Shown here piece after piece: positions 6,065 to 64,000 of a stretch of 64,000 nucleotides of DNA. The DNA is from Dehalococcoidia bacterium. GTDB taxonomy: Bacteria > Chloroflexota > Dehalococcoidia > Plut-88900. Under the pieces are notes generated by a model that was not told the DNA's origin, did no database searches, and worked only from the letters and a program-made list of their open reading frames with translations. The DNA is taken from contig CBDFLQ010000007.1 in NCBI GenBank assembly GCA_965249275.1, positions 480,001 through 544,000 of the forward strand. The letters are read 5' to 3'. A program made the position numbers and the translations under genes. How positions within the stretch are numbered: the first letter of the stretch is position 1; every line of letters starts with the position of its first letter.

Positions 6065-7912
6065 CTAGGAGATGCTCAGCATTTCCAACTTAGCCTCTGT
6101 CGGCTTTCCTTCCTGGTCCCATCCCCGCAGGCTGTAGTATTCAGGCAGCATCTTGTCCAGCTGCCCGACTCTGCCCTTCGCCGGGTTACTATCGCCTGAT
6201 ATGGCATCCTTGAGGATACGGTCGGGCAGTGTGTCGTCGGCCTTGGTGAGTCCGGCCTTGAGGTTGAACAGCCTCTCCAGGTTCCAGACCCTTTCGCCTA
6301 TGGTGTTCATGTCGTCCATGGTGAACTCCAGGCCCGTTACCCCTTCCAGTAGCTTCCTTATGTCATCTAAATCGTTCCCTGCCGAAATAAAGAGGCACAG
6401 CCCCGTTGAATCATGTATCGAGTTTTCGTTCTGCAGGGACACGACCAGCTCGGCTTTGCCTTCTGGCGAACCGGGGTCCAGCTTATACGGCATACCGAAT
6501 ATCTCGGCCCCCGGCGTGAACGCCCGCAGGTGGTCGGCGCCCCGGTTGTTGGTCGCGTAGGCAAGGCTCATCCCGTTAAAGGCCCGTGGGTCGTATGCCG
6601 GGAACTCCTGTCCCTTGGAGCCCATGTGCACCCTTGGGTTCCCGTACTTGACCCCCATCCTCTTCGATCCCTCAGCAAGCGCATCCCCGATCCCTTCTCG
6701 ATAGCAGGTCTTTTCGACCAGGGACACCAGCGCATCCCCGCTGCCGAAGTTTATCTCCATGCCCGCTTCGCTGTCGGAGATGGCGCCCATCTCGTAAAGC
6801 TCCATCGCCGCCGAGATCGTTGCTCCCATCGAAATTGTGTCGACACCCAGGTCGTTGCACATCCAGCTCGCCTTGATCAAAGCGTCCAGGTCCGAAACCC
6901 CGCACTGAGACCCAAGGGCCCATGCCGTCTCGTACTCCGGCCCTTCGCCTGCCACCTTCCAGTTCCGCGGGTGTGTGTTCACCATGAACTTGCCCGCCGC
7001 TTCTCCGGGGAGGTGGGTAACCCGGCCGCATGCTATCGTGCAGCTGAAGCAGGCCTTGTTGGCTACCAGCCGATTGTCGGTCACAGCCTCGCCGTTTATG
7101 TCTTCCTCACCCTCGAATTGCGTTTCCAAGTGGTTGCGGGTCGGAAGCCCGCCCGTCTCGTTGATGATTCCCATGATTTCGAGGGTGCCGTACATCTGCA
7201 TCCCCATCACACCGGGATTATTCGTCAACTTCCCGTGCTGCGAACCAATAGCCTGCATCGCACGTTCCGCCGATGCAACCCGAACGCTCCCCGTGCCTCG
7301 CACGGCGATAGCCTTCAGGTTCTTCGAACCCATCACCGCCCCGACCCCGGAGCGGCCCGCAGCCCGGTGCAGGTCGTTCACTATGCACGCAATCCTTACC
7401 AGGTTCTCACCAGCAGGGCCGATACTTGCGATAACGCAGTCCGGCACTCCGGTCTGCGCCCTTATCAGGTCCTGAGTCTCCCAGACCGTCTTGCCCCAAA
7501 TACCTTCCGCCGGGAGGAGTCTTGCATCATCGTCGTAGACCCACAGGTACACGGGGCTCGGGGACTTCCCATGAACGATGACCATGTCATACCCGGCGAA
7601 CTTTAGCTCCGGGCCCCAAAAGCCTCCCGAGTTGGATCCCGCCATCCCACCGGTCAGCGGGCTCTTGGTCACCACCGAGTAGCGTGATGACGCCGACGCC
7701 CCCGTCCCGGTTAGCGGCCCCGTGGATAAGACGAGCACGTTATCCGGCTCCAAAGCATCGACAGTGGGGTCACGCATCTCTTCATACAGATACTTGGCCC
7801 CCAGGCCTCTCATACCCACGTACTCCCGGGCCCAGTCCATGTTCAGGTCTTCTTTCGCAACGACGCCGTTGGTCAAGTCGACCCGCAGGACTTTTCCGGT
7901 CCAACCGTTCAT
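6065..7912 (-). CDS. tungsten aldehyde:ferredoxin oxidoreductase family large subunit (copy 2)
   Basis: KSPLTG, SNSGG, AAGRSGVGAVMGSKNLKA, CxxCxxxC and EGPEYE motifs. Confidence 0.95.
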   Translation of the reverse strand: MNGWTGKVLRVDLTNGVVAKEDLNMDWAREYVGMRGLGAKYLYEEMRDPTVDALEPDNVLVLSTGPLTGTGASASSRYSVVTKSPLTGGMAGSNSGGFWGPELKFAGYDMVIVHGKSPSPVYLWVYDDDARLLPAEGIWGKTVWETQDLIRAQTGVPDCVIASIGPAGENLVRIACIVNDLHRAAGRSGVGAVMGSKNLKAIAVRGTGSVRVASAERAMQAIGSQHGKLTNNPGVMGMQMYGTLEIMGIINETGGLPTRNHLETQFEGEEDINGEAVTDNRLVANKACFSCTIACGRVTHLPGEAAGKFMVNTHPRNWKVAGEGPEYETAWALGSQCGVSDLDALIKASWMCNDLGVDTISMGATISAAMELYEMGAISDSEAGMEINFGSGDALVSLVEKTCYREGIGDALAEGSKRMGVKYGNPRVHMGSKGQEFPAYDPRAFNGMSLAYATNNRGADHLRAFTPGAEIFGMPYKLDPGSPEGKAELVVSLQNENSIHDSTGLCLFISAGNDLDDIRKLLEGVTGLEFTMDDMNTIGERVWNLERLFNLKAGLTKADDTLPDRILKDAISGDSNPAKGRVGQLDKMLPEYYSLRGWDQEGKPTEAKLEMLSIS

Positions 7913-7962
7913 CGGTATCCTATGCCTTTACAGATCCCGATAGTCCGTAAATCGGTCGGTCT

Positions 7963-9807
7963 TTAGAGGATTCCGAGTTGCGCCAGTTTGGCGTCCGTGG
8001 GATCTCCGTCCCGGGTCCAGCCCCTGAGGTCGTAGTACTCGGGCAGCATCTCGGACAACCGATTAACTCGACCCTTGGCCGGGCCTGCGGGAATGCCTTC
8101 GTTAAGCAGCCTCTTGGGCAGTGTGTCCTGGGCGCCCGGAATGCCGGCGTTGATGTTCCAGACCCGCTCCAGGTTGTAGATCCGCTCCCCGACTTCCATC
8201 AGGTCTTCCATGGAGTAGTCCATTCCCGTCGCTGCGTTGAGCTCCGGCTGTATGTCGTCCAGCCCGATGCCGAAGGTCAGGAACAGGCACAGCCCAGCGG
8301 CGTCCACCGTCGACGTGACGTCCTGGAATATCTTGGTCAGCCCCGCCTTCCCCTCCGTTACGGCAGGATCGGCCTGCTCAGGGATGCCGAACACTTCCGC
8401 GGCTATGGTGTAGGCCTTCAGGTGGCATGCGCCCCTGTTGGAGGTGGCGTACCCCAGCCCGATGCCCTGGAATGCCCGTGCGTCGTAAGCCGCGACTTCC
8501 TGACCCTTAACTCCTATGAACAGGTCCGGATGGCCGTACTTCTCGGTCATCCTCTTCGAGCCTTCAGCTAGCTCGTTGCCAAAGCCTTCCCGGAAGCAGG
8601 TTTTCTCGGCCATGGCGACCAGCACATCCCCGTTGCCGAAGTCCAGGGCCATCCCGGTCTCTTCCTGCGTGATAACGCCTTTTTCGTAAAGCTCCATCGC
8701 CGCTGCGAGGGTGCCGCCGTAGGATATCGGGTCGATTCCCAAGTCGTTGCAAATCCAGTTGGCCTTGATCAGTGCGTCCAGGTCCCCGATTCCGCAGTCG
8801 GCGCCCATGGCCCATGCTGCCTCGTACTCCGGCCCTTCACCCGACATCTTCCAGTTACGAGGAGTGGTGGTAACCATGTACTTGTCCGCTGCATCTCCGG
8901 GCAGGTGCGTCACCCGACCACAGGCAATGGTGCAAGCAAAACAGGCCTTGGGGCCCGTGAGACGGGTGTCGGTCATCGTCTCACCGCTAATCCCCTCGGC
9001 TTCGTCGAATTCGCCGTACTGGTGGTTGTTCGTGGGCAAGCCGCCGTGCTGGTTGATCACGTTGACCAGGATTGGGGTCCCGTAGGCTCGGAGACCCTCG
9101 CCGGTGACGGGAGACGCAGCCAGCTTTACCTTCGCCGCAAACGTCGATTCCATCATCGCCTCGGGCTTCGCCACTTGTACGGCGCCCGTGCCCCGCACAC
9201 CTATCGCCTTCAGGTTCTTGGAACCCATCACCGCCCCGACGCCGTTGCGACCCGCAGCCCGGTGCTTGTCGTTCATTATCGATGCGAACCGGACCATGTT
9301 TTCACCCGCAGGCCCGATGCTCGCCACTATAGCGTCCGGGACCGCCGTTTCGGTTCGGATCGTGTCCTCGGTCTCCCACACGCCCTTGCCCCACAGGTGG
9401 CTCGCATCTACGAGTTGCACGTCGTCATCGTAAATCCACAGGTAGACCGGGTTCGGCGATTTCCCGTTGAAGATCACCATGTCGTACCCGGCAAACTTGA
9501 GCTCGGGGCCCCAGTGTCCACCCGAGTTGGACGTGGTAATAGTCCCGGTCAGTGGGCTCTTGGTAACAACCATGTACCGAGCCCCGCACGATGCGTTGGT
9601 GCCGGTCATCGGGCCCGTGGCGAAAATCAGCTCATTCTCCGGGCTCAGGGGTTCGACCTTCGGATCCAGGTCCTCATATAGATATCTGGCTCCCAGGCCC
9701 CTCCCACCAACGTATTGGTGGGCCCATTCTTCATTCAGGTCTTCTTTTGTTATTGTGCCGGTGCTGAGATCAATTCGGAGCAGACGCCCCGACCATCCGT
9801 ATGCCAT
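7963..9807 (-). CDS. tungsten aldehyde:ferredoxin oxidoreductase family large subunit (copy 1)
   Basis: same AOR motifs plus RGACH and EYYDLRGW. Confidence 0.95.
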   Translation of the reverse strand: MAYGWSGRLLRIDLSTGTITKEDLNEEWAHQYVGGRGLGARYLYEDLDPKVEPLSPENELIFATGPMTGTNASCGARYMVVTKSPLTGTITTSNSGGHWGPELKFAGYDMVIFNGKSPNPVYLWIYDDDVQLVDASHLWGKGVWETEDTIRTETAVPDAIVASIGPAGENMVRFASIMNDKHRAAGRNGVGAVMGSKNLKAIGVRGTGAVQVAKPEAMMESTFAAKVKLAASPVTGEGLRAYGTPILVNVINQHGGLPTNNHQYGEFDEAEGISGETMTDTRLTGPKACFACTIACGRVTHLPGDAADKYMVTTTPRNWKMSGEGPEYEAAWAMGADCGIGDLDALIKANWICNDLGIDPISYGGTLAAAMELYEKGVITQEETGMALDFGNGDVLVAMAEKTCFREGFGNELAEGSKRMTEKYGHPDLFIGVKGQEVAAYDARAFQGIGLGYATSNRGACHLKAYTIAAEVFGIPEQADPAVTEGKAGLTKIFQDVTSTVDAAGLCLFLTFGIGLDDIQPELNAATGMDYSMEDLMEVGERIYNLERVWNINAGIPGAQDTLPKRLLNEGIPAGPAKGRVNRLSEMLPEYYDLRGWTRDGDPTDAKLAQLGIL

Positions 9808-11192: not shown

Positions 11193-12872
11193 TTGAAGGA
11201 ATTAGCTTTGCCTGAATCTCCTCAACAAGATACCCTCCAGGAAACCAAGACCAACTGGACCAAGAAGTACGAAGCGTCTAGAAAGCGCGACGCCCTCTTT
11301 ACCACCGTCTCCGGCGCGCCCGTCGATCCCCTCAACATCCCCTCCCCCGACCCCTACTCCGACTTCGACGAAAACATGGGGATGCCCGGCCAGTACCCGT
11401 TCCTGCGCGGCATACATCCCACCGGACACCGAGGCCGGCTCTGGACAATGCGCATGTTTTCCGGCTTCGGGACCGCCGAGGAGACCAACGCCCGATTCAA
11501 GTTCCTCCTTGGCCAGGGTGAAACAGGCCTCAGCACCGCCTTCGACATGCCCACCCTCATGGGCTACGACCACGACGACCCCATGGCCATCGGCGAGTTC
11601 GGAAAGTGTGGCGTTGCCGTTTCATCTCTAGCCGACATGGAAGTCCTCTTCGACGACATTCCCATCGAACAGGTCACCACATCCATGACCATCAACGGCC
11701 CCGCCGCCATTATCTGGGCCATGTTCATCGCCGCCGCCGAAAAACGCGGCGTGCCTAGGGCAAAACTCGGCGGCACACTCCAGAACGATATCATTAAGGA
11801 ATACACCGCCCAGAATGAATATATATTCCCCGTCGAGGCCTCAATGCGCCTCGTGACAGATACCGTTGAGCTTGCCGCCAAGGAGATGCCCCGCTGGAAC
11901 CCCATCAGCATCAGCGGATACCACATTCGGGAGGCCGGCGCCACCGCAGCCCAGGAGCTTGCCTTCACCCTCGCCGCCGGCTTCGAATACGTGGACTGGG
12001 CCCTTGAACGTGGTCTCGACATCGACGAGTTCGCCCAGCGACTCAGCTTCTTCTTCAACGTCCACGACGACTTCTTCGAAGAGATATCCAAGTTCCGCGC
12101 CGCCCGCAGAATATGGGCCCGAGAGCTCCGGTCCCGCTACGGCGCGAAAAGCGACCGCTCCCTCTGGCTTCGCACTCACGCCCAGACCGCCGGTGCCGCT
12201 CTCACTGCTCAGCAGCCGGAGATAAACGTATCCCGGGTCGCCCTCCAGGCTCTCGCCGCCGTGCTCGGGGGAGTCCAGTCCCTCCACACCAACTCCATGG
12301 ACGAGGTTCTTGCCCTTCCCTCCCAGGAGGCCGTTCTGGTCGCCCTTCGCACCCAGCAGATCATTGCCCACGAAAGCGGTGTGGCGGACCTCGCCGACCC
12401 CCTGGGCGGCAGCTACCACCTTGAAGCCATGACCGACCGCATCGAAGAGGAAGCCTACGAGTACTTCCGGCAGATCGAGGACCAGGGAGGCGTCATCACA
12501 GCCGTCAAGAACGGCTACTTCCAACGCCAGATCGCCGACTCCGCATTTAAGTACCAGCGGGAGATCGAGCAGAACCAGCGCATCAAAGTAGGCCTAAACG
12601 GCTACGCCGAGGGGAGCGACCCCCAAATTCCCATTTTAGCAATGGATCGGGAAGGCGAGCGTCGCCATCTCGAAAGGCTGCACCGCACCCGGGACACTCG
12701 AGACCAGGCCGCCGTCGACCGCGCCCTCTCCGACCTCAAGCGTGCTGCCCTCGGCTCCGAAAACCTCATGCCCTACCTGCTTACCGCGGCTCGAGCCTAT
12801 GCCACTCTCGGCGAGACTACAAACGCTCTCCGTGAGACCCTCGGCGAGTCAGAAATCTACAACGTGGCCTAA
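11193..12872 (+). CDS. B12 acyl-CoA mutase large subunit, isobutyryl-CoA-mutase-like signature
   Basis: [41 protein letters not shown]. Confidence 0.9.
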
Positions 12873-12938
12873 CTTAACCTCACTACTTCCTCTCCCTGAT
12901 CGGACGCCTTCGCATCTCGCATTATGGCGTTGCATCTG

Positions 12939-12967
12939 ATAGCATAAATGAGGCAACTTTATGCTAT
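12939..12967 (+). promoter_or_regulatory. hicAB-2 operator inverted repeat
   Basis: ATAGCATAAA-9 nt-TTTATGCTAT, overlapping the likely ATG at 12966. Confidence 0.6.
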
Positions 12968-13163
12968 GGACAGCAGGGAAGTATTAAGAAGATTGAAGAA
13001 GGACGGTTGGGTGCTTAAAATCACTAAGGGCAGTCACCATCAATTCACACATCACGTAAAGCTAGGGAAAGTCACCGTTAAGCATCCACAAAAGGATATA
13101 CCCATAGAGACAATGCGGAGCATCTTCCGTCAAGCATACTGGAACTGGAAGGACCGACGATGA
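12966..13163 (+). CDS. hicA: HicA-family toxin
   Basis: MDSREVLRRLKKDGW....KGSHHQFTH....GKVTVKHPQKDIP. Confidence 0.92.
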   Translation: MDSREVLRRLKKDGWVLKITKGSHHQFTHHVKLGKVTVKHPQKDIPIETMRSIFRQAYWNWKDRR

Positions 13164-13450
13164 AATACCATGTAATCATCCACAAAGACCCTGGTTCTTC
13201 CTACGGTGTCACTGTCCCTGATCTACCCGGCTGTTTCTCGGGCGGCGACACATTTGAAGAGGCGCTGTCCTCTGTTAGGGAAGCAATCGAATGTCATATC
13301 GAGGGAATACTCATGGACGGGGATGCCATCCCAGAAAAAAAGCCCTTGCAGATCCACAAGGCCAATGAGGATTTCGCAGGCGGCACTTGGGCCAGCGTCT
13401 CCGTCGATCTCTCTGCTCTATCCGCGAACCCTGCGCCATCCCGTCTCTAG
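13160..13450 (+). CDS. hicB: HicB-family antitoxin (short; no obvious DNA-binding tail)
   Basis: YGVTVPDLPGCFSGGDTFEEAL...EAI; ATGA overlap with hicA. Confidence 0.9.
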   Translation: MKYHVIIHKDPGSSYGVTVPDLPGCFSGGDTFEEALSSVREAIECHIEGILMDGDAIPEKKPLQIHKANEDFAGGTWASVSVDLSALSANPAPSRL

Positions 13451-13595
13451 AAGCCCTTTCTCCAGCTCCGCAAAACATTCTGGGCCTCCGTAGCATTTCC
13501 GAAATCATGCAGCAAATTGGCGCAACGCGCTCCACGCGTTTATGATAAACGCGGGAGGCCGACCTCAATCTTTCTTACCAACTAAGGGATTCCCT

Positions 13596-15260
13596 ATGCT
13601 CAAAGAAAAAGACTTGAATAAGATCATCCAACGCCAGCAGGAGTGGCAGGAAAAGGCCGACAAGGCCCGACAGCGGGATGGCCTCTTCTCTACCTCCTCA
13701 GGGGCCCCCATCAAAGCCGCCTACTCTCCCCTAGACATAGCCGATCAGGACTACATGACCGACGTCGGCATGCCCGGCGAGTACCCATTCACCCGCGGAA
13801 TCCACCCGACGGGCTACCGTGGCAGACTCTGGACCATGCGCCAATACGCCGGATTTGGCTCCGCCGGAGAGTCTAACCGCCGCTACCGCTACCTGCTCGA
13901 ACAGGGCCAAACGGGTCTCAGCGTCGCCTTTGACCTTCCCACTCAGATGGGTTACGACTCCGACCATCATATGTCCCGCGGCGAGGTAGGTAAGGTGGGA
14001 GTTCCCATCGACACCCTCGCCGACATGGAGGTCCTTTTCGAGGACATTCCCCTCGAAAAGGTCACCACGTCCATGACCATTAACGCCACCGCATCAATCC
14101 TTCTAGCGCTTTATGTCGCCATGGCCAAGAAGCAGGACGCCGACCTCTCCAAGCTCGGCGGAACAGTCCAGAACGATATCCTCAAGGAATACATCGCCCG
14201 GGGCACCTACATCTACCCACCCCGCCCCTCCATGCGCCTCATCACTGATCTCTTCCGTTACTGCGGAGAAAGCCTTCCTGCCTGGAACACCATAAGCATA
14301 AGCGGCTATCACATGCGGGAAGCCGGGTGTACGGCGGTCCAGGAGCTCGCCTTTACCTTTAGTGACGCCATAGCCTACGTTCAGGCCGCCGTGGATGCGG
14401 GCATGGACGTGGACAAATTCGGGGCCCGGCTCTCCTTCTTCTTTGTCAGCCAGAACAACCTCCTGGAAGAGGTGGCCAAGTTCCGTGCCGCCCGAAAGAT
14501 CTGGGCCCGAATAATGAAGGAGCGCTTCAACGCCCAGAACCCTCGCTCCTGGATGGTCAGGTTCCACACGCAGACCGCCGGCGCCGCTCTAACAGCACAG
14601 CAACCGGAGAACAACATCGTCAGGGTCACCATACAGGCCCTGGCCGCTGTCCTCGGTGGCACACAATCGCTCCACACAAACTCTATGGACGAGGCCCTCG
14701 CCCTTCCTTCCGAAAAAGCCGCTACCATCGCCCTCCGCACTCAGCAGATCGTCGCAAATGAGTCGGGCTGTGCTGACGTTATAGACCCGTTGGCAGGCTC
14801 CTTCTACGTGGAGCGCCTCACCAAGGACCTGGAAGACGAGACCTTTAAATATATCGAGCGAATAGACGACTTCGGCGGGGCCCTCGGCGCGATCGAGCGC
14901 GGATTCATTCAACAGGAGATTCAGGACAGCGCATTCCGCCATCAGCAGGAGATCGAGTCGAGCAAGCGGGTAGTGGTGGGTGTGAACGCCTACGAAAGCC
15001 CCCAGCCTCCCCTTCAGGGAACGCTCAAGATAGACCCCGAGCTGGCCCGCACCCAGGTCGAGAATCTCCAGAAGATCAAGCAGTCTCGAGATCAGGCAGC
15101 CGTGGACAGCGCCTTGAACTCTCTGAGAGAAGTGGCCGCGGGGGATGGCAACACGATGCCCGCGATCCTGGAGGCTGTCGAAGTCTATGCCACCCTCGGC
15201 GAAATTAGCGATGTCCTCCGGGACGTCTTCGGTGACTACGAACCGTCCGCTACTTTCTGA
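13596..15260 (+). CDS. methylmalonyl-CoA mutase large subunit
   Basis: [24 protein letters not shown]. Confidence 0.93.
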
Positions 15261-20111: not shown

Positions 20112-20165
20112 CCCATTACCCTTCGTACAACGCAATTCCCATCCCCCCAACCCACCTTCTTTTTG

Positions 20166-20360
20166 GTGTCATCCCGAGGCCCCGCGCTGAAAGTCCGCCG
20201 AGGCGGAAGGGATCCAGGACTTGCCCGCCCACATTCCTCTATTCTCAGCAATGCCCCTTCCCCCTACATCCAACTCGCTCGCCACCCCCCAACCACCCCA
20301 CCCCCAATAGCCGTGTCATCCCCTCTTCCTTGTGTCATCCCGAGGCCCCGCGAGGGATCT
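20166..20360. repeat. two REP-like palindromes (family A, GTCATCCCGAGGCCCCGCGAGGGATCT)
   Basis: copies near 20166 and 20333; relatives near 29014, 29989 (inverted), 31068, 40886, 42154 and 43092. Confidence 0.75.
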
Positions 20361-31067: not shown

Positions 31068-31324
31068 ATTCCGAGGCTCCGCGAGGAATCTGGGGCGGGG
31101 ACTCCCCTCCCCCCACTTCCCTCCGTCATTCCGGCTGCCGAGAGCCGGTCGAAGATGCTGCAGGTTTGCCCTGGACGGAGGAACACAATATGAATAGAGA
31201 TGCGCGTGCCGTTCCCTCCCAACCCCTTGCCCCACCCGACGCGCCCGCTTATCATTGCATCCACGTATGACCCTTTTCATACTTGTTTGACCCCCGCGCC
31301 CTTGACACCATAAGGAGACCACAG

Positions 31325-40836: not shown

Positions 40837-40879
40837 CCCAGCCAACAAAATACCCTCTCCCTGTCCCCTCGTCTCCCAT

Positions 40880-41015
40880 TTGTCCTGTCATTCCGAGGCT
40901 CCGCGAGAAATCTGGAGGGCGTCCCCCCATCCGTCATTCCGGCCGCCGAGAGCCGGAATACATTCCTGGAGGTGGGGCCGCTCACCCTGAGCACCGTCGA
41001 AGGGTCGAGCGAGGG
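40880..41015. repeat. REP-like palindrome mosaic
   Basis: family A, GTCATTCCGGCCGCCGAGAGCCGGAAT and CCGCTCACCCTGAGC..GTCGAAGGG units in tandem. Confidence 0.7.
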
Positions 41016-41097: not shown

Positions 41098-42153
41098 TGT
41101 AAGTGTTAGGTAATTCGTTGACAGATTGGTATAAGAAGCCAACACCAATCTGGAGGCGAAAATGCGAGACAACAGCAAGGACCTCACCCTTGAAAGGAAC
41201 TACATTCAAAAGTGGCGGTTCCTCATCCATGAGTATCAACTGGTCAAGGCCAGGAAGCATCCCCGCTTCCGCTTTGCCCAGGACTTCTATGCCTTCCACG
41301 GCACTACATGTCAGACCTTTGCCAAGTACTACAACCGGTTCCTCCTCTCCCCCTCCGACGAAGCCTTCTTCCCCCGTAAACGGGGCCCCAATTGGAAGAG
41401 CCGCCGTACCCTGCCCTACATCGAGCAGAAGGTTCTCACCGAACGGCTCAACGGTACCAATCGCTACGAGATATATGCCATACTCAAGCCCATCCTCAAA
41501 CAGCACACTCCTAAGCCCTCTACCATCTACGCCATCACCAGACGCCACGGTGTTAATAGGCTCACTAAGCCGATGCAGCAGTCCAAGCGCAAGATCATCA
41601 AGACCCGGGCAGGGGAGCTGGGGCACCTGGACAGCCACCACCTCAGCCGGGACCTCCTGGTAGACTCCAAGCGCCGTTACTATCTGGTCGCCCTCATTGA
41701 CGCCTGCACCCGCTTGGCCTGGGCCGAAGTGGTCGGAGACATCAAGAGCCTCTCTGTGATGTTCGCAACCCTGAAATCCATCAACTTCCTTAACGCGGAG
41801 TACGGCATCCAATTCGAGGCTATCCTCACCGACAATGGCCCTGAGATGGCCTCGCCCAGGAACATCGAGGGCCACCCCATGGAACGGATGCTCAATGAGC
41901 TGGGCATCAAGCACCGCTACACACGCCCTTATAGGCCCCAGACCAACGGGAAGATAGAGCGGTTCTGGAGAACCCTGAACGAGGACCTGCTGGAGGGGAC
42001 CACCTTCGAGTCGGTGGCAGAACTGCGGGACGAACTGCAGCAATATCTGCTCTACTACAATACCCAGAGACCCCACCAGGCAATGGACGGAAAGACCCCT
42101 TTGGAGACCCTTCAATCTCTCTAATTCTGTCAACGAATCATCTGACATCTACA
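41098..42153 (+). mobile_element. IS481-family insertion sequence, copy 2 (1056 bp) with ATTCC target duplication
   Basis: GTC-ATTCC[TGT...ACA]ATTCC-GAGGCTCCGCGAGGAATCT. Confidence 0.92.
41162..42124 (+). CDS. IS481-family DDE transposase
   Basis: 320 aa; differs from copy 1 at 6 residues by eye. Confidence 0.92.
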   Translation: MRDNSKDLTLERNYIQKWRFLIHEYQLVKARKHPRFRFAQDFYAFHGTTCQTFAKYYNRFLLSPSDEAFFPRKRGPNWKSRRTLPYIEQKVLTERLNGTNRYEIYAILKPILKQHTPKPSTIYAITRRHGVNRLTKPMQQSKRKIIKTRAGELGHLDSHHLSRDLLVDSKRRYYLVALIDACTRLAWAEVVGDIKSLSVMFATLKSINFLNAEYGIQFEAILTDNGPEMASPRNIEGHPMERMLNELGIKHRYTRPYRPQTNGKIERFWRTLNEDLLEGTTFESVAELRDELQQYLLYYNTQRPHQAMDGKTPLETLQSL

Positions 42154-42224
42154 ATTCCGAGGCTCCGCGAGGAATCTGGGGCGGGCGTCCAGTCCCCCTC
42201 TCCCCACTTTGTGACACCAACCCC

Positions 42225-42254
42225 TTGACCAAACTGGAACGCCTGTACTATCCT
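42225..42254 (+). promoter_or_regulatory. promoter with LexA/SOS-like box (locus 2)
   Basis: TTGACC-18 nt-TATCCT with GAAC-GCCT-GTAC in the spacer. Confidence 0.62.
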
Positions 42255-42259
42255 TCTCC

Positions 42260-42890
42260 ACGTCTGGCCAGTCACCCACCCTAAACCCAAGGAGGAACCA
42301 AAACCCAGGGGGAACCCCAGCCCCGGCCCCCGAGGACTCAACGTCCCAGCCTATCCCGCTAGAGCGGTCCACACCGCTCCTCGGCTCAAGCGAAAGCCGC
42401 CATCTCCTCACCTAAAGGCCCCGGCTCACCCTTCCCCCACCACCCAGGCGATGGAAGGTCCATAGACTATACCCGGCACGTCCATCAAAGGACCCCTGCC
42501 GATTCAACGCTTCCCGTCATCGGATGCGTTTACACCGGCCTATTGCATGCCGGTTTGCCGGATCGGTCAACCGACCCCCGGATTAGCAGGGCACTCGTGT
42601 CCTTGTTTGTCCCGCCGTCTCCATCATCCGTCTACCCGACTGATGCACAGAGACGCCGGTCTGAAAGTCCGCCTCAGGTGGTATCTTCCCCGTCAGCGGT
42701 CCGGTCATGTGCCGCTGCCGGAGGGATCGGCCCCACACAACCTTGACCACAGCCGACAACATGTGGGGATAAGCCAGACCGGTGCCGACAGCTCGGCCAC
42801 AACCCCCGGCCTGGATTCTAGTCTCGGACCTTCCATCGCCAACTCCCCCCCACCCACACAAACCAAAACCGAGGTTTCCCATCCACAACT
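42260..42890 (+). ncRNA. putative large structured ncRNA (cassette 2)
   Basis: leader homologous to locus 1; 15-bp perfect stem 42447-42461/42826-42840 enclosing a run of hairpins; boundaries approximate. Confidence 0.6.
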
Positions 42891-42984
42891 GAATAATTCC
42901 CCTACCCACTGCATGAGCCCCTTGCGCATCCGTCATCGCCGAGAAATCGGGCGCACGAAGTACGGCCTTTCTACTCCTGGGGGT

Positions 42985-43240
42985 GGGGCATTCCGCTCAC
43001 CCTGTCACAGATCCGATAAGGCGGGAGCCGAGTCGAAGGGTCTCAATAGCGGAATGGGCGGGGTGTCCCGGCCCCCCGCCCCCGTTGCCCCTGTCATCCC
43101 GAGGCTCCACGAGGGATCTGGGGGGCGGCGTCCTCTCCCTTTTCCTTTCATGGGCCGTAGCTACGCTGACGTATGAGAGGCCCAGCGCCGTAGGCTCGCT
43201 GAGAAGGGTCTAAGACTCGCCGAGGAGGATGAGGGTGTTA
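42985..43240. repeat. REP-like palindrome mosaic
   Basis: near-copy of 23615-23702 plus a family A unit at 43092. Confidence 0.65.
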
Positions 43241-43287
43241 CCCCTGCCACTCAGTTTCAGACTAATCCGTCCGCTCTCGGTTAACCC

Positions 43288-43728
43288 CTACTTCCGCCAC
43301 ACCGAGGACGCGCCCACCTTCACCACCGGGACCCCGTCCTGATTGGTGAACAGAGCTTCCTTCTTCAGAAACACCATGGGCCCCGAACGCCCGGTCTTCG
43401 CGTAAACGTCGGTCACCATTATTGAGGCGTCCAGTACGTCTCCCGGCCTGACCGCGCCGATTGGCTCTACCCAGTACCCCGCAAGGTAAAGCACCCCGTC
43501 GAAGTCCAGTTGCAAATCTGGGGGTTCCCAATCGTCGATTAGCAGGACGGGAAGGGAGGGGGGAGCGGTCATTCCGTGAGAGTTGCCGTCTCCCACGAAT
43601 TTCGGGTTCGTTTCGCCCGTGGAAGTTGTGTGCAGCGCGATCATCTCTTGCGTTATGCGAAACGGCCCTGCCTTGAAGGTCGTATTCAGAATGTCCCGGT
43701 TGAATTTAAACTCGAACTCTTCAGCCAT
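43288..43728 (-). CDS. MaoC/FAS1-like hotdog dehydratase
   Basis: GETNP, APPSL, VRPGDVL, KTGRSGPMVF, TNQDG. Confidence 0.85.
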   Translation of the reverse strand: MAEEFEFKFNRDILNTTFKAGPFRITQEMIALHTTSTGETNPKFVGDGNSHGMTAPPSLPVLLIDDWEPPDLQLDFDGVLYLAGYWVEPIGAVRPGDVLDASIMVTDVYAKTGRSGPMVFLKKEALFTNQDGVPVVKVGASSVWRK

Positions 43729-56619: not shown

Positions 56620-57783
56620 CTAGTTCACGACCAACTCATGGGGCACATGTGTAATCACCTCAACGCCGTCCTCATGAATTATCGACTGCTCTCCCAGGGA
56701 CATGGTCAGCCCCGATTCGCTGTCCACGAGGATCATGTGGGTGAAGAAGGTCATGTTGGGTTCCAGCACTAGCGGGTTATCGCCCACTATCATGGGTTGC
56801 TCCATCCAGGAGGGCGCCCACGTTGCACCCATAGTGTAGCCACATGCTTTCAGGAATGCGTGGCCGTATCCGTGCCTTGTGTAAGCATCAGCATGAGCCT
56901 TGAATACGTCTCTGACGGTATTACCGGGCCTCAGGGTCGCCTGGACGGAGGTCAGGGCATCAAGGCAGGCATCGTGCATGCGGCGGTGTCGGTCATCGAC
57001 TTTCGGCCCGGTGACCACGGCCGCCATGTTGGCGGCATGATAGTGGTGATATCCGCAGGCGATCTCATAGGTGACCTGGTCGTTCTCACTCACCGTGCCC
57101 CGACCCGTGGCATAGCGCACCAGGAGGGCCTTGTCGCCGGAGCCCACGGGCCAGTGGCTGGCAGGAGGATCTCCCCCCGCTTTCCATATGATGCTGTGCA
57201 TCTCGGCGAGGATATCGCCTTCATAGGTCCCGGCCCGAGTGAGCTCGATCCCCTTGGCCATCGCCTGATCTATGATCTTTCCGGCCTCTCGAATGTATTC
57301 GAGTTCCTTTGGACTCTTTACCACTCTCTTCAGCCTGATCATGTCCGAGGCGTCTACCAGCTCACAATAGTCTCCTACCGCGGCGGACAAGTCCCGGCCC
57401 ATCTTGCTGGTGAGGCCGTAGGTGTCGTGCTGGACACCGATCCGCTTGCCCTTCAGGTTGAACCTTTCCAGCACCTCCCGAACCGAATTGAATGGAGAGT
57501 TACCTAAACTGTCCACCCAGAGATGCACGTCGTCACACACCGAGGAATATTCGATGCTGGGCACATCCGCAGACCGGGTGATGTGTGTAAGCTCTCCGTT
57601 CACACCAATGTACATGGCGTGAAAAATGACGAAGCCCTGGGTGTCGAGCCCGCAGAGCCAGTACATGTCCTCAATCTTGAAAAGCAGCATCCCTTCGAGG
57701 CCCTGCTTGGACAGCGCTGCCCTGACTCGGGCCTGGCGTTCCGCGAACTCTTCCCTGGTGAAGTAAATCGTAGGTTCCGGCAT
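56620..57783 (-). CDS. M24-fold hydrolase (paralog)
   Basis: FTREEFAERQ, KSPKELEY, CGYTMG; own TTGACA-16 nt-TATGAT promoter upstream. Confidence 0.88.
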   Translation of the reverse strand: MPEPTIYFTREEFAERQARVRAALSKQGLEGMLLFKIEDMYWLCGLDTQGFVIFHAMYIGVNGELTHITRSADVPSIEYSSVCDDVHLWVDSLGNSPFNSVREVLERFNLKGKRIGVQHDTYGLTSKMGRDLSAAVGDYCELVDASDMIRLKRVVKSPKELEYIREAGKIIDQAMAKGIELTRAGTYEGDILAEMHSIIWKAGGDPPASHWPVGSGDKALLVRYATGRGTVSENDQVTYEIACGYHHYHAANMAAVVTGPKVDDRHRRMHDACLDALTSVQATLRPGNTVRDVFKAHADAYTRHGYGHAFLKACGYTMGATWAPSWMEQPMIVGDNPLVLEPNMTFFTHMILVDSESGLTMSLGEQSIIHEDGVEVITHVPHELVVN

Positions 57784-57881
57784 GTTCTCCCCCTATGGAA
57801 CGGCTCCCCGAATCATACGCCGCCACGCTGGACTGTCAATCGCCTTTCACGCGCCAATTAAGCTGAACAGACTTGTGCTGC

Positions 57882-59045
57882 TTAGTTCACGATCAACTCG
57901 TGAGGCACGTGTGTAATGACCTCAACTCCGTCTTCTTGGACTATGATCTGCTCTCCGAGAGACATGGTCAGCCTCGACTCCCGATCTACCAGGATCATGT
58001 GGGTAAAGAAGGTCATGTTAGGTTCGATGACGTGGGGGTTATTTCTTAGAATCAGCGGCTGCTCCATCCATGATGGAGACCAGGTAGCCCCCATGGTGTA
58101 GCCGCAGGCGTTTAGCAGCGCATGTCCATACCCATGCTCGGTGAATGCTTTTACGTGGGCTTCAAACACATCACCAACGGTGTTGCCGGGCCTCAGTGCT
58201 CCCTGCACGCCTTCCAACGCCGCCAGACAAGCTTCGTGCATCCTGCGGTGCCGATCATCGACATTCGGGCCGGTGACCACGGCAGTCATGTTGGCCGCGT
58301 GATAGTGCCGGTAGCCGCAGCCAATCTCGTATGTTACCTGGTCGTTTTCTCCAATCGTGCCCCGGCCGGTGGCGTAGCGCACCAGCATCGCCTTCTTGCC
58401 AGAACCAACGGGCCAATGGGCCGCCGGTGGGTCGCCCCCCGACCTCAATACGATGCCGTACAGCTCAGCCCAAACATCGCCCTCGTACACCCCGGCCTTG
58501 GTCATATCAATGGCCTTGGCCATCACCTGGTCCATAATCTTTCCGGCTTGCCGGATGTATTCAAGCTCCTGCGGGCTCTTCACAACCCTCATCAGGCGGA
58601 TCATGTCCGAGGCATCAACCAGCTCGCAGTAGCCGCCGACCGCCGCGGCCAATTCCTGTCCCATCCTGCTGGAGAGGCCGTAGGTGTCGTGCTGAACACC
58701 GATACGTTTGCCCTTCACGTTGAATCTCTCCAGCACCTCCATCACCGCGTTCATTGGAGAATTATCCAAACTGTCCACCCAGAGGTGCACGTCGTCACAC
58801 ACCGAGGAATATTCGATGCTGGGTACGTCGGCGGAGCGGGTGATGTGGGTCAGTTCTCCGTTTATCCCTATGTACATGGCGTGAAAGATTTTCCAGCCCT
58901 GGGTGTCGAGGCCGCTGAGCCAGTACATGTCTTCAATCTTGAACAGCAGCATCCCCTCCAGACCCTGCTTGGACAGTGCTGCCCTGACTCGGGCCTGGCG
59001 TTCGGCGAACTCTTCTAGGGTGAAGTAAATGGTTGGTCCCGGCAT
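57882..59045 (-). CDS. M24-fold hydrolase (tandem paralog)
   Basis: colinear with the previous gene from MPGPTIYF; GGGGAG RBS and TTGACA-16 nt-TATCAT upstream. Confidence 0.88.
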   Translation of the reverse strand: MPGPTIYFTLEEFAERQARVRAALSKQGLEGMLLFKIEDMYWLSGLDTQGWKIFHAMYIGINGELTHITRSADVPSIEYSSVCDDVHLWVDSLDNSPMNAVMEVLERFNVKGKRIGVQHDTYGLSSRMGQELAAAVGGYCELVDASDMIRLMRVVKSPQELEYIRQAGKIMDQVMAKAIDMTKAGVYEGDVWAELYGIVLRSGGDPPAAHWPVGSGKKAMLVRYATGRGTIGENDQVTYEIGCGYRHYHAANMTAVVTGPNVDDRHRRMHEACLAALEGVQGALRPGNTVGDVFEAHVKAFTEHGYGHALLNACGYTMGATWSPSWMEQPLILRNNPHVIEPNMTFFTHMILVDRESRLTMSLGEQIIVQEDGVEVITHVPHELIVN

Positions 59046-60787: not shown

Positions 60788-60887
60788 GCTTCACTCTTTC
60801 GAAGGGTGAATTTCATAGGCGCCCATCATATCACCCAGCCTGCCAGTTCATTCGACCATATTCCTAATTCGGAGTACACTCCGCTCT

Positions 60888-62234
60888 ATGTCGGTCGTCT
60901 CCAAACTCCCCCTCGCGGGTCGGCTCACCTTCTTCTACGGCTGGCGCATCGTAGCCCTCGGCTTGTTACTCAACCTGATGACCGCGGGCCTGAGCTCCTC
61001 CGCCTTCTCCGTTTTCGTCAAGCCCATGGGCGACGATCTCGGCTGGTCCCGGGCTTCCATCGTACTAGCCGTCACTATAGCAACACTGGCCGCTGCGGTA
61101 TCCGGCCATTTCCTCGGGTTGGCCCTGGACAAGAAACACGGGGCTCGGCTTCTCACCACGGGCGGCATGCTGACAATCGGGATCAGCACCGTATTCATTG
61201 GCCAGGTGTATCAGAGCTGGCATCTCTATAGTCTCTTCTTCATCGCAGGAGCCGTCGGTCTCGCCGCATACCCGGGCCTCATAACCCCCACCATAGTCTC
61301 CAAGTGGTTCGTTCGTCGGCGGGGCATGGCCATTTCCTTTGCGAGTATGGGTCTGCCTTCCAGTGGATTCATCTTGAGCCCATATGCCAACTTACTCATT
61401 GAACATCTTGGCTGGCGGGACGCCTGGATTGTCCTTGGGCTGACGGCCCTGGCCGTTACGGTCCCAGCCTGTGCCCTATTCATGCGCCGCCGCCCCGAGG
61501 ACATCGGCCTCCGGCCCGACGGCGATGACCCTGCAGCCCCACGAGGCGCCGGTGAAATGATGCCCGTAGTTCCCGACGAGCATTCCTGGACCATCCCACA
61601 GGCCATTCGCACTCGGGCATTCTGGCTCATGCTCATCTCCAGCAGCCTCGGGATGTTTTGCTTTATCGGTGTCCTGATCAACTTCTTTGCTTTTGCCTCC
61701 GACGCCTCTATCGGATTTACCTCTGGTCAAGCAGGGTGGGCGTTCGCAACTTTCTCGTTCATTTCCCTTGCTGCCAAGGTCCCGTGGGCCTACCTCGCCG
61801 ACCGCCTCGATATCCGGGCGACTACTGCCTTCACCTATGCAGTGCCCGCCATAGCAATGGCCATCCTGATAAATGCCGACTCATTCTGGATGCTCGTTTT
61901 GTGGGGTCTCATATACGGAACGGGTGCATCGGGGATATCTCTACTGCCTTCCTTCGCATGGGGGTCATACTTCGGAAGGACCTTCCTCGGCTCCATAAGG
62001 GGCATAACATCCCCCATGACCTTCTTCGGTCAGGCCACAGGCCCTCTATTTGCCGCCTTGCTCTATGACAAACTAGGAAGCTACCAGGTTTCCTTCATAG
62101 TCTTCATCGGACTATTCCTGCTCTCCGCCGTTCTAATGCTCTTCGCCCGGAAGCCCGTGCCGCCCACCCCCGCCCCAACACCCGAAAACCAGCGCCTCTT
62201 CCCCGAAGACGCAGCCCGGAACATGGCCGGTTAA
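60888..62234 (+). CDS. MFS transporter
   Basis: FFYGWRIV, LGWSR, KWFVRRRG, GWRDAW, YFGR. Confidence 0.92.
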   Translation: MSVVSKLPLAGRLTFFYGWRIVALGLLLNLMTAGLSSSAFSVFVKPMGDDLGWSRASIVLAVTIATLAAAVSGHFLGLALDKKHGARLLTTGGMLTIGISTVFIGQVYQSWHLYSLFFIAGAVGLAAYPGLITPTIVSKWFVRRRGMAISFASMGLPSSGFILSPYANLLIEHLGWRDAWIVLGLTALAVTVPACALFMRRRPEDIGLRPDGDDPAAPRGAGEMMPVVPDEHSWTIPQAIRTRAFWLMLISSSLGMFCFIGVLINFFAFASDASIGFTSGQAGWAFATFSFISLAAKVPWAYLADRLDIRATTAFTYAVPAIAMAILINADSFWMLVLWGLIYGTGASGISLLPSFAWGSYFGRTFLGSIRGITSPMTFFGQATGPLFAALLYDKLGSYQVSFIVFIGLFLLSAVLMLFARKPVPPTPAPTPENQRLFPEDAARNMAG

Positions 62235-62295
62235 CCTTGGAGGATCACACTCTGCAGATTCGACCCAACCCCTGATTCGCTGTACACTGGCGCAT

Positions 62296-63642
62296 ATGCC
62301 CCTCCCCCCCAAGCTCTCTCCGGCAGGTCGGCTCACATTCTTCTACGGTTGGCGAATCGTAGCCCTCGGTTACTTACTCAACCTCATGACCGCGGGGCTG
62401 AGCTCCTCGACTTTCTCCGTCTTCGTAAAGCCCATGGGTGACGACCTAGGCTGGTCCCGGTCATCCACGATACTCGCCACGACCACCGGGACTGTGGCGG
62501 CGGCCGTATTCGGGCATTTTCTCGGCACAGTGCTGGACAAGAGGCACGGGGCCCGGCTTCTAACCACCGGCGGTATGATCACAATCGGCGTCTGCGCCAT
62601 CCTGTTCGGCTTCGTCCAGGAGACCTGGCACCTTTATGGGCTTTTCTTCATCGGCGGCGCCGTCGGACTCTACGCCTACCCCGGCCTCCTGACGCCAACC
62701 ATAGTCTCCAAGTGGTTCGTACGTCGGCGGGGCATGGCCATCTCCTTGGCCAGCATGGGTCTGCCATCTAGCGGCATTCTGCTTAGCCCTTATGCCAATT
62801 TACTCATAGCCCATCTGGGCTGGCGCGACGCCTGGATGGTCCTCGGCATAACGGCCCTGGTTGTCACGGTCCCCTTGTGCGCCCTATTTATGCGCCGACG
62901 CCCCGAGGACATAGGTCTCCGCACCGACAATGACGAACCGGCTTCACGCTTACGGTCCGGCAAGTTTGCCCCAGTACTGCCTGACGAACACTCCTGGACC
63001 ATCCGCCAGGCAATCGCCACTCGTTCGTTCTGGCTCATCCTCATCTCCAGCAGCCTGGGGATGATGTGCTTCATGGGCATACTGATCAATTTCTTTGCCT
63101 TCGCCACCGACACCGATGCCGGCTTCACAACAAACCAGGCATCCGTAGCCTTCGCCGCATTCTCCGGCTTTTCCCTCATAGGCAAGCTCCCGTGGGCCTA
63201 CCTCTCCGACCGCATAGACATTCGAATCTCCACCGTTTTCACGTATACGGTTCCCGCTGTTGGTATCGCCCTTCTCATCAACGCCGATGCATTCTGGATG
63301 CTTTTGCTCTGGGGTATCGTTTTCGGGACCGGCATCTCCGGTATTGCCCCTCTCCCAGCCTTAGCCTGGGGTTCATATTACGGTCGTACTTTCCTGGGCT
63401 CCATAAGAGGCGTGACATCTCCCATCGCTTTCCTAGCCCAGGCCTCGGGCCCCCTCTTTGCGGCCTTCCTGTACGACAATTTGGAAAGTTACCAAGCCTC
63501 CTTCTCCGTTTTCATCGGCCTGTTCCTTTTCTCAGGCTGCCTCATGCTCTTCGCCCGAAAGCCCGTGCCCCCCTCCCCCCTCCCAAAACCCGAGAGCCAA
63601 CGTCTCTTCCCTCAGGAAGTTGTCCATGACCTTGTTGGCTAG
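62296..63642 (+). CDS. MFS transporter (tandem paralog)
   Basis: same length (448 aa) and colinear with the previous gene. Confidence 0.92.
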   Translation: MPLPPKLSPAGRLTFFYGWRIVALGYLLNLMTAGLSSSTFSVFVKPMGDDLGWSRSSTILATTTGTVAAAVFGHFLGTVLDKRHGARLLTTGGMITIGVCAILFGFVQETWHLYGLFFIGGAVGLYAYPGLLTPTIVSKWFVRRRGMAISLASMGLPSSGILLSPYANLLIAHLGWRDAWMVLGITALVVTVPLCALFMRRRPEDIGLRTDNDEPASRLRSGKFAPVLPDEHSWTIRQAIATRSFWLILISSSLGMMCFMGILINFFAFATDTDAGFTTNQASVAFAAFSGFSLIGKLPWAYLSDRIDIRISTVFTYTVPAVGIALLINADAFWMLLLWGIVFGTGISGIAPLPALAWGSYYGRTFLGSIRGVTSPIAFLAQASGPLFAAFLYDNLESYQASFSVFIGLFLFSGCLMLFARKPVPPSPLPKPESQRLFPQEVVHDLVG

Positions 63643-63645
63643 CCC

Positions 63646-64000
63646 ATGAAACGCCGCCCCTTCTTCGGTTGGTGGGTTGTCCTTACAGGATTCATTGACC
63701 AATTCACTGCCGCGGGATTCGGCGTCTACGCCTTCAGCGTCCTCGTCAAGCCCATGTCCGATGACCCGGACCTGGGGTGGTCTTCTACCCAACTTGTCTG
63801 GGGCATCACCATCGGCATCGTCATAGCCACCAGCACCGGGCCTCTCTTCGGCCTATTCCTGGACAAGCGGCACGGTCCCCGACTCCTCATGCTCGCGTTT
63901 GGGCTGACCGGGGCCCTGGGCCTCGCACTCACAGGCCGGGTGGAGCATCTGTGGCAATACTATCTGGTCTTCGGGGTCGTCTCTGCCTTCTTCATCCACT
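63646..64000 (+). CDS. MFS transporter, third paralog (runs off the window)
   Basis: MKRRPFFGWWVV...FSVLVKPM...LGWS...LDKRHGPR. Confidence 0.85.
   Translation, partial: MKRRPFFGWWVVLTGFIDQFTAAGFGVYAFSVLVKPMSDDPDLGWSSTQLVWGITIGIVIATSTGPLFGLFLDKRHGPRLLMLAFGLTGALGLALTGRVEHLWQYYLVFGVVSAFFIH

Follow-up and report, generated by a model that had tools for sequence, protein, structure and literature searches.

Within a 64,000-nt stretch of the genome of a Dehalococcoidia bacterium (Chloroflexota; assembly GCA_965249275.1, contig CBDFLQ010000007.1, positions 480,001 to 544,000), hereafter the window and the frame for all positions not assigned to another contig, a long-range stem enclosing a hairpin-rich interior occurs twice, in a unit at 29109..29987 (locus 1) and in a unit from 42211 onwards (locus 2). 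On balance, and with moderate confidence, we read locus 2 as one copy of a genus-specific, mobile, recombining non-coding element that combines a promoter with a long structured leader. This reading builds on an observed repeat family with a common anatomy, covariation and excess folding, lack of coding, presence/absence differences between species, swaps of interiors and a bias in orientation relative to neighbouring genes.

With the 251 nt upstream of the stem as blastn query, 59 matches were recovered from the host genome (2,899,744 bp, 87% complete), 52 of which reach the stem. All except one of these (51 of 52) carry both arms, 310-542 nt apart, and represent complete copies that total 36,365 of the 2,899,744 bp. 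A preliminary description of the window had presented locus 2 as the second copy of a cassette with a different payload, a picture that gives way to one of 51 complete copies and nine interior subfamilies. A covariance model of the leader (R1) detected only loci 1 and 2 within the window, and gave 23-71 matches per genome in all nine genomes of the genus (at most 150 candidates scored per genome), with no match in three other genera of the same family or in 88 genomes from 74 other genera of the class. The blastn distribution agreed (element in 9 of 41 genomes), and the public contigs matching the element belong to Dehalococcoidia bacterium metagenome-assembled genomes (MAGs); the element family is genus-specific. 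At gathering score, Rfam contained no family matching any part of the window, nor one matching any of 12 loci that represent other subfamilies and a sister family, type II (discussed below); at E up to 10, only chance-level rows turned up around both loci. Phage and plasmid collections gave no match to the element, a viral contig with a 17-nt motif match being rejected by model R1, and the article text returned by a full-text literature search, available in part, contained no description of it.

Units are 650-820 bp long and follow one order: a promoter with a palindrome at its -10, a C-rich leader of ~190 nt, a stem with its interior, and a C/A-rich tail. The preliminary description, sound on the stem, had overlooked the promoter and the membership of the leader in the same unit, as well as the gain and loss of copies and their usual site upstream of a co-oriented gene. 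Family similarity starts sharply at GTGACAC (42211..42217, + strand), a 7-bp palindrome-type motif that lies 7 nt upstream of the -35 and is present in nearly all copies according to the 5'-flank alignment and promoter table. The sigma-70-type promoter of locus 2 (42225..42254, + strand) reads TTGACC / 18-nt spacer / TATCCT, with 9 of 12 consensus matches; the family consensus is TTGAC[C/A/T]-N17/18-TAT[A/T][A/T]T, with the same architecture in 49 of the 51 copies, namely those parsed. Promoter prediction across 42150-43300 yielded two sites against 0.1 expected from shuffles. Adjoining the -10, position weights mark a palindrome, GAAC-GCCT-GTAC (42237..42248, + strand). In the family it takes the form G[A/T]AC-N4-GT[A/G/T]C and constitutes the last 12 nt of the promoter spacer, and it is a possible operator for a repressor. 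The palindrome resembles the Gram-positive-type LexA box, whose consensus is GAAC-N4-GTTC, most elements differing from this by one or two mismatches. The lexA gene of the genome has a perfect GAAC-N4-GTTC box, AGAACGCCCGTTCC, directly after its -10 (C6 about 159550-159600), and recA has GAACACATATCC within its promoter spacer (C5 about 375230-375260). The likeness to the box of the lexA promoter makes LexA control of the element promoters a lead, not a finding.

The conserved C-rich leader, or 5' domain (42261..42446, + strand, its start being an estimated rather than mapped transcription start), was delimited by alignments and by an R1 match at 42278-42462 (164.5 bits, E 3e-42). In locus 2 it contains AAGGAGG (42289-42295), the invariant GGACTCAACGTCC (42334-42346), a variable hairpin GAGCGG/CCGCTC (42362-42379) and a block GGCTCAAGCGAAAGCCGCCATCTCCTC, followed by CCCTTCCCC, which precedes the 5' arm. 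Across the family the invariant block reads GAGGACTCAACGTCC..GCCCATCCC, and ~60 leader nucleotides are nearly invariant in copies that are otherwise 15-30% different. The AAGGAGG is predicted to pair with CUCCU or CCUUCC downstream, and the variable hairpin retains its pairing over at least ten different stem sequences (including GGGCGGC/GCCGCCC, GAGCGGC/GCCGCTC, GGGCAGC/GCTGCCC, GGTCGC/GCGACC and GGCCC/GGGCC). At the other end of the unit, the C/A-rich, G-poor tail (42841..42895, + strand) ends in CACAACTGAATA, which marks the 3' limit of family similarity in the 3'-flank alignment; family tails are 55-65 nt long and end in CACAACTGAATA or CACAATCGAAGA. A further conserved module of ~70 nt (..TCCGCCTCTGGAGGACTGAAGAAAAGGCCGGTGTGTCACTAACCTACCGAACGAGTACAC), containing GTGTCAC, lies 3' of 22 of the 51 copies, for example after C7:556125 (-) and after C5:615760 (+), and is absent at locus 2. 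Approximately 5 nt past this module stand TTGAC and a plausible, correctly spaced -10, of which the spacer and -10 are copy-specific and two cases precede tRNA genes, so that the module looks like the upstream part of the next gene's promoter. Locus 1 (+ strand) has the same layout, with GTGACAC at 29109-29115, the -35 at 29123-29128, an R1 match at 29177-29355 (152 bits) and a tail that carries an additional short insert and is truncated by an insertion sequence (IS) at 29988. A mini-insert of ~22-38 nt (TGGAACATCCGCC..GG.GG, sometimes doubled) was seen in the leader loop of two copies (L051 and L075) and inside many tails, including that of locus 1 at 29912-29950, and resembles a tiny mobile hairpin.

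The stem of locus 2 joins GGCGATGGAAGGTCC (42447-42461) to its complement GGACCTTCCATCGCC (42826-42840) and, after a 2-nt gap, extends through AGACTA (42464-42469) and TAGTCT (42819-42824). The 5' arm thus spans 42447..42469 and the 3' arm 42819..42840, about a 364-nt interior at 42462..42825 (all + strand). The arms, the extension and the length of the interior are as the preliminary description had given them. It had further reported that the outer 11 bp are the same in both loci and that the inner pairs change on both strands, which the two sequences bear out: the next four pairs are ACGC/GCGT in locus 1 (arms GGCGATGGAAGACGC at 29340-29354 and GCGTCTTCCATCGCC at 29850-29864) and GTCC/GGAC in locus 2. 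The long-range covariation claimed from this pair of loci is present across the family as well. Of the 924 cells that the outer 11 bp make up in 84 distinct elements, 868 are Watson-Crick; positions 12-15, in the 83 elements parsed, are GTCC/GGAC in 26 and ACGC/GCGT in 17, and another 18 have the ACGC form with a single bulged A. A formal count over 19 bulge-free interiors, hand-chosen from the 84, found 97.8% of 228 cells paired for the 12 outer pairs, compared to 35-68% with a slid partner, and at pair 12 eleven are G-C, seven A-U and one is unpaired. For the inner 17+17 nt, binding to the cognate partner amounts to -11.85 kcal/mol versus -8.53 +/- 0.29 for random partners (none of 200 shuffles binds as well), with the proviso that these partner shuffles, like the pair counts, ignore the relatedness of copies. 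The compensatory difference is one between a few alternative helix types, each common to whole subfamilies.

Folding of the enclosed region exceeds that of shuffled controls. Positions 42447-42840 fold at -176.8 kcal/mol, compared to -136.8 +/- 6.2 for 100 dinucleotide shuffles (z -6.48, no shuffle as good), whilst locus 1 reaches z -4.43 on the same comparison, which had been proposed as a check on the preliminary description. The minimum free energy structure of locus 2 is a multibranched chain that includes the closing stem and recovers each of the seven hairpins listed there. Folding of the complementary strand is almost as strong (z -5.42), and RNAalifold on 19 subfamily-0 sequences gave 105 pairs, four with double changes.

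Interiors in the host genome fall into nine subfamilies (13, 11, 9, 6, 4, 3, 2, 2 and 1 members; 72-99% identity within), rising to 13 subfamilies once relatives are included. Locus 2 belongs to the largest (subfamily 0, 13 members) and locus 1 to a two-member one (subfamily 6). Because they form such subfamilies, the interiors are conserved modules rather than free sequence between arms. Of the earlier proposal that selection acts on the pairing and not on the payload, the conserved and covarying pairing is supported, and the arbitrary payload is not. An origin of the interiors in other genes was rejected, as their only matches beyond the 51 copies are further elements and one short insert resembling a repetitive extragenic palindromic (REP) sequence. 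An inverton, with interiors in both orientations, was likewise rejected, since 1362 of 1376 interior-to-interior matches are in the same orientation and the 14 reverse matches are all 30 nt or shorter. Each subfamily is found with several leader and pre-arm classes, in many combinations. At matched sites in related genomes (n = 14) the interior subfamily is the same in nine comparisons and different in five (both flanks mapped in three of the five), and orthologous copies are patchy, with the leader 100% and the interior 80% identical, or the reverse. Together, the subfamily swaps, mosaic classes, patchy identity and turnover of copies argue for frequent recombination or gene conversion among copies. 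As regards integron gene cassettes (attC site, integron integrase with attI), a comparison prompted only by the word 'cassette', no copy lies in an array and each has its own promoter.

Turnover of copies was evident at locus 2 itself, which is flanked by a hydantoinase B gene upstream and a MaoC-like dehydratase gene downstream on the other strand. The site is empty in four of four relatives, whose flanking genes are 81-95% identical; the intergenic distance is 78 nt in one of them (G002) versus 2363 nt here, the other three being similarly empty, and REP-like repeats, the element and an rve-type IS account for the additional DNA here. In the reverse comparison, 25 of the relatives' elements (from 37 leader matches) had enough flank. 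For eleven of these, both flanks are collinear here and likewise enclose an element, two correspond to sites empty here, five lie at synteny breaks, with flanks that map to different places, five have one flank mapped and two have none. Orthologous copies are 80-98% identical versus 88-97% for their flanks; since they are no better conserved than the flanks, and patchily so, we claim no purifying selection for the whole element. No arm pair encloses a long open reading frame (ORF) or transposase, and no related autonomous IS with the same ends was found. Domains for a reverse transcriptase (RVT_1, PF00078), a Y1_Tnp/RAYT transposase (PF01797) and the TnpB zinc-ribbon (PF07282) were not found in the 87%-complete genome. 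A group II intron or retron was rejected in view of the missing PF00078 and a sole Rfam intron row of 15.5 bits against a threshold of 65.5, and an IS200/IS605-type OMEGA element (TnpB/IscB omega-RNA, HEARO) in view of the lack of an Rfam match and of PF07282 and PF01797.

Other repeats share the surroundings of the element. Two IS copies, ~96% identical and ~1.06-1.1 kb long (29988-31091 and 41098-42177), adjoin one locus each; the integrase is of the rve family (320 aa, 41162-42124), and the IS ends are unrelated to the element. The IS at 41098 has inserted into a REP-like hairpin (GTCATTCC / GAGGCTCCGCGAGGAATCT), and ATTCC occurs on both sides. REP-like hairpin repeats of several families, for example GTCAT(T/C)CCGAGGC(T/C)CCGCGAGG(A/G)ATCT and CCCTCTCCC..GGGAGAGGGCTAGGGTGAGGGTGAT, occur in the window at 20154-20360, 29000-29059, 31051-31110, 40873-40932, 42137-42196 and 43079-43138, and elsewhere. 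They crowd intergenic regions and usually flank elements, and these regions are wholly different between species whose genes are 92-95% identical. The window also holds tandem pairs or triplets, 69-87% identical and spaced 1.1-2.4 kb (7275-9531, 11374-14061, 23974-25392, 56621-58182 and 60850-63764), which are apparently paralogous gene arrays.

Copies of the element tend to face a gene on their own strand. Among 14 copies on the + strand of their locus that were inspected by ORF listing and Pfam, a Pfam-supported co-oriented gene starts 32-367 nt 3' of the tail in 12, the next gene being convergent in two. The downstream genes encode Amidohydro_2 (four copies), CoA-transferase III, succinyl-CoA-ligase-like, luciferase-like monooxygenase and FAD amine oxidase proteins, as well as CCG domain, cobalamin-independent synthase domain, peptidase S58 and TPR proteins. 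Locus 2 faces a convergent gene and is therefore probably a recent insertion without a client gene, whilst an IS directly follows locus 1. No intrinsic terminator was predicted at the locus 2 tail; Rho-dependent termination at this C-rich tail was rejected because no Rho RNA-binding domain was found in the 87%-complete genome. Four metatranscriptomic runs from two studies contained contigs 85-99% similar to the element, two of which span 42328 or 42382 to 42895 and continue into other sequence. The depth of these two contigs is 23-26 versus 6-18 for flanking-gene contigs, the contigs being uninformative on level, strand and ends. Leader bins in the RNA libraries sum to 120-570, values inflated by multi-copy collapse, DNA carry-over may contribute to the cover, and the promoter bin (42180-42254) has zero cover in three runs, from which no inference is drawn.

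From these features we infer a course of events in which the near-consensus sigma-70 promoter at 42225-42254 would start a transcript, possibly under a repressor at the -10 palindrome. The transcript would fold into the 190-nt leader and a large domain that the GGCGAUGGAAG.../...CUUCCAUCGCC stem closes. As the element has no terminator of its own, transcription would continue into downstream DNA, and read-through would reach the usually co-oriented catabolic gene tens to hundreds of nucleotides away. In that case the element would serve as a mobile promoter joined to a long structured 5' leader, possibly with a regulatory effect on that gene. Copies would spread and disappear between species, by whatever means, and leader classes and interiors would be exchanged by recombination for which the conserved leader and the arm/tail serve as homology; such exchange between copies would produce the pattern of same arms and different payload.

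Several observations weigh against this reading. Neither a transposase nor a target-site duplication or defined insertion boundary was found; where filled and empty sites were compared, REP-like repeats have remodelled the flanks or divergence is too great for the boundaries to be located. The crude whole-genome count, which favours the reading in that the downstream gene is co-oriented in 40 of 50 cases (the upstream gene in 35 of 51), comes from a gene finder that recovered only 925 genes (31% of bases), and 10 of 50 copies, including locus 2, do not face a co-oriented gene. For a selfish element, selection against antisense transcription could alone produce the orientation bias, and as ~22 of the 51 copies precede an apparent -35/-10 of the downstream gene, the element promoter may be dispensable. 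Relatives of the element are present in the RNA-library contigs, which are no proof of expression, strand or ends. One-sided changes in the stem leave the strand of function ambiguous: at positions 2-10 there are 23 G-U against 2 A-C (9 against 2 among 33 distinct arm pairs), pairs 12-15 show the opposite trend (10 A-C against 2 G-U), and the reverse strand folds as well or better. Assignment of a strand from such counts was rejected, as prediction biases the counts towards either strand and the unbiased counts of outer and inner stem disagree.

An alternative that keeps transcription central would make the copies free-standing, trans-acting structured RNAs of ~650 nt, with a leader that binds a protein or target and a stem that serves as a processing site, for instance for RNase III, to release the interior. 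The promoter of each copy, the nearly invariant leader nucleotides, the 15-bp stem with its 6-bp extension of conserved sequence and the strong folding of both loci would suit such an RNA, and an RNase III gene is encoded at C7:427888-428274. We nevertheless regard it as unlikely, given that a trans-acting RNA would not usually have 40-70 gene copies in a 3-Mb genome and that copies are gained and lost between close species with a strong bias to sites directly upstream of co-oriented genes; in addition, no terminator, defined 3' end or Rfam match was found. Doubtful to the same degree is a purely selfish DNA repeat, resembling a MITE (miniature inverted-repeat transposable element) or forming part of a REP-type mosaic, whose inverted repeat and hairpins act in DNA and whose transcription is incidental. 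High copy number, presence/absence differences with copies at synteny breaks, embedding among several REP-like families, comparable folding of both strands and orthologous copies no better conserved than their flanks would all be expected of such a repeat. An inverted repeat ~240 bp inside the 5' end rather than at the termini would not, nor would a consensus promoter kept in essentially every copy, and the 1376 interior matches include no inverted interior. The genome likewise yielded no longer copy with a transposase between the arms and none of the Y1/RAYT, TnpB or reverse transcriptase domains.

It is quite improbable that the 51-copy family that includes locus 2 (type I) consists of start-less pseudogene copies of a coding gene related to its 13-copy sister, type II. 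As a protein-coding gene, the type I element was rejected: ORF positions and lengths are inconsistent within subfamilies, six of the nine subfamilies (1, 2, 3, 4, 6 and 7) have stops in all three frames with no codon periodicity, the distance from AAGGAGG to the arm takes all residues mod 3, and no Pfam family matches the ORFs that overlap locus 2. At 37% C and 16% T, the composition of the strand by itself gives rise to long open frames. Type II copies (for example L110:142-879 (+), L111:179-1096 (-) and L112:146-1018 (+), all outside the window) have the promoter, the arms (some variant) and part of the interiors in common with type I, and differ in the leader, where AAGGAG is followed after 5 nt by ATG. 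From there an ORF of 216-409 codons is open through the structured region in 13 of 13 copies, the other frames having 2-15 and 1-8 stops; C makes up 49% of codon position 3 versus 37% and 35% of positions 1 and 2 (55-59% at position 3 in two real genes of the window), and 379 unnamed database proteins match the product at E <= 0.001. Decay from such a gene would also accommodate type I subfamily 5, which keeps the type II frame open, and subfamily 0, in which one frame is stop-poor (13 stops in 1709 codons versus 29 and 37) and fully open in 6 of 13 copies. Yet type I outnumbers type II 51 to 13 and has the more conserved leader, and type II itself bears no mark of purifying selection, with pN/pS at 0.89 versus 0.92 and 0.86 in shifted frames and position 3 the least variable in its best-conserved block (38 mismatches versus 116 and 140). 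Its product has no Pfam domain and extends into flanking repeats of REP sequence. The type II ORF is either a real fast-evolving protein or a frame kept open for another reason. The 209-aa ORF at 42547-43176, which overlaps the locus 2 interior and which the preliminary description had named as a competing product, is open and yet fails as a gene, having no Pfam family, an ATG replaced by GCG in three other aligned subfamily-0 sequences, 2-4 stops in its frame in 5 of 13 subfamily-0 copies and a continuation beyond the element into REP-like repeats on a strand rich in chance open frames, so that a functional role for it is highly improbable.

A bolder scenario, which we consider rather unlikely, is that of a modular RNA system in which each genome would produce 40-70 independently transcribed RNAs of ~650 nt, the invariant leader being a platform for a protein or ligand and the exchangeable stem-closed domain setting the role of each copy. 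Read-through would join ~50 dispersed catabolic genes into one regulon rewired by recombination, and the sister lineage would have made the same RNA into a translated ORF, as a dual-function RNA or by de novo gene birth. If, as we favour, locus 2 is a copy of a mobile element that carries a promoter and a structured leader, then dozens of unrelated catabolic genes, among them genes for amidohydrolases, flavin monooxygenases and CoA-transferases, receive a promoter, strong and possibly co-regulated, and a structured leader of 600 nt from one movable module, in a lineage of which only MAGs are known. It would provide a concrete case of regulon building via mobile cis-elements, and yield large natural RNAs that fold well and contain a plug-in domain. 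Repeats of 0.7 kb at synteny breaks will also confuse assembly, gene calling and homology searches in such genomes, and hundreds of public 'hypothetical proteins' are read-throughs of the sister type II.

Comparison with known systems places the element near several of these without assigning it to any. Prokaryotic MITEs and other small mobile sequences (Correia/NEMIS, ERIC, RUP and RU) are described as intergenic, non-coding sequences in many copies that contain inverted repeats, fold strongly, vary in presence between relatives and sometimes have promoters, co-transcription with neighbours or open frames (PMC10969869, PMC2229807, PMC2759123, PMC5896051). In contrast to these, the unit described here is larger (650-820 bp), its inverted repeat is internal (~240 bp from the 5' end), its GTGACAC and CACAACTGAATA ends are not inverted repeats of each other, every copy has a full consensus promoter and 190-nt leader outside the repeat, there are at least nine exchangeable interiors, and no parent IS or target duplication was found. 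REPs and bacterial interspersed mosaic elements (BIMEs), with their REP-associated tyrosine transposases (RAYTs), are described as intergenic mosaics of repeated modules, the REPs being 20-40-nt palindromes without promoters (PMC2817692, PMC3686654). The element is similarly flanked by several REP-like hairpin families, with an IS inserted in one, and differs in its unit length and in that no Y1/RAYT domain was found in the 87%-complete genome. Putative mobile promoters ('promoter propagation in prokaryotes') are repeated promoter-bearing upstream regions before unrelated genes, to which the element adds a conserved, structured putative transcript of ~600 nt whose closing stem is long-range. 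Large or multi-copy structured bacterial RNAs, such as HEARO/IscB omega-RNA, GOLLD, ROOL and OLE, of which HEARO reaches tens of copies per genome, resemble the element in its several hundred nucleotides of elaborate conserved structure. Unlike these, every element copy includes a promoter of its own as well as a swappable domain, without an IscB/TnpB-type partner found in the genome or, in the sole comparison made, an Rfam match even at E up to 10. The precursor stems of rRNA operons, which are cut by RNase III, also enclose structured RNA within a helix of sequences hundreds of nucleotides apart; the RNA enclosed by the element stem is no known functional RNA. Judged by its sequence, the element fails the defining tests of these nearest known kinds and is a bacterial interspersed promoter-carrying repeat with an unusually large, modular and structured putative transcript.

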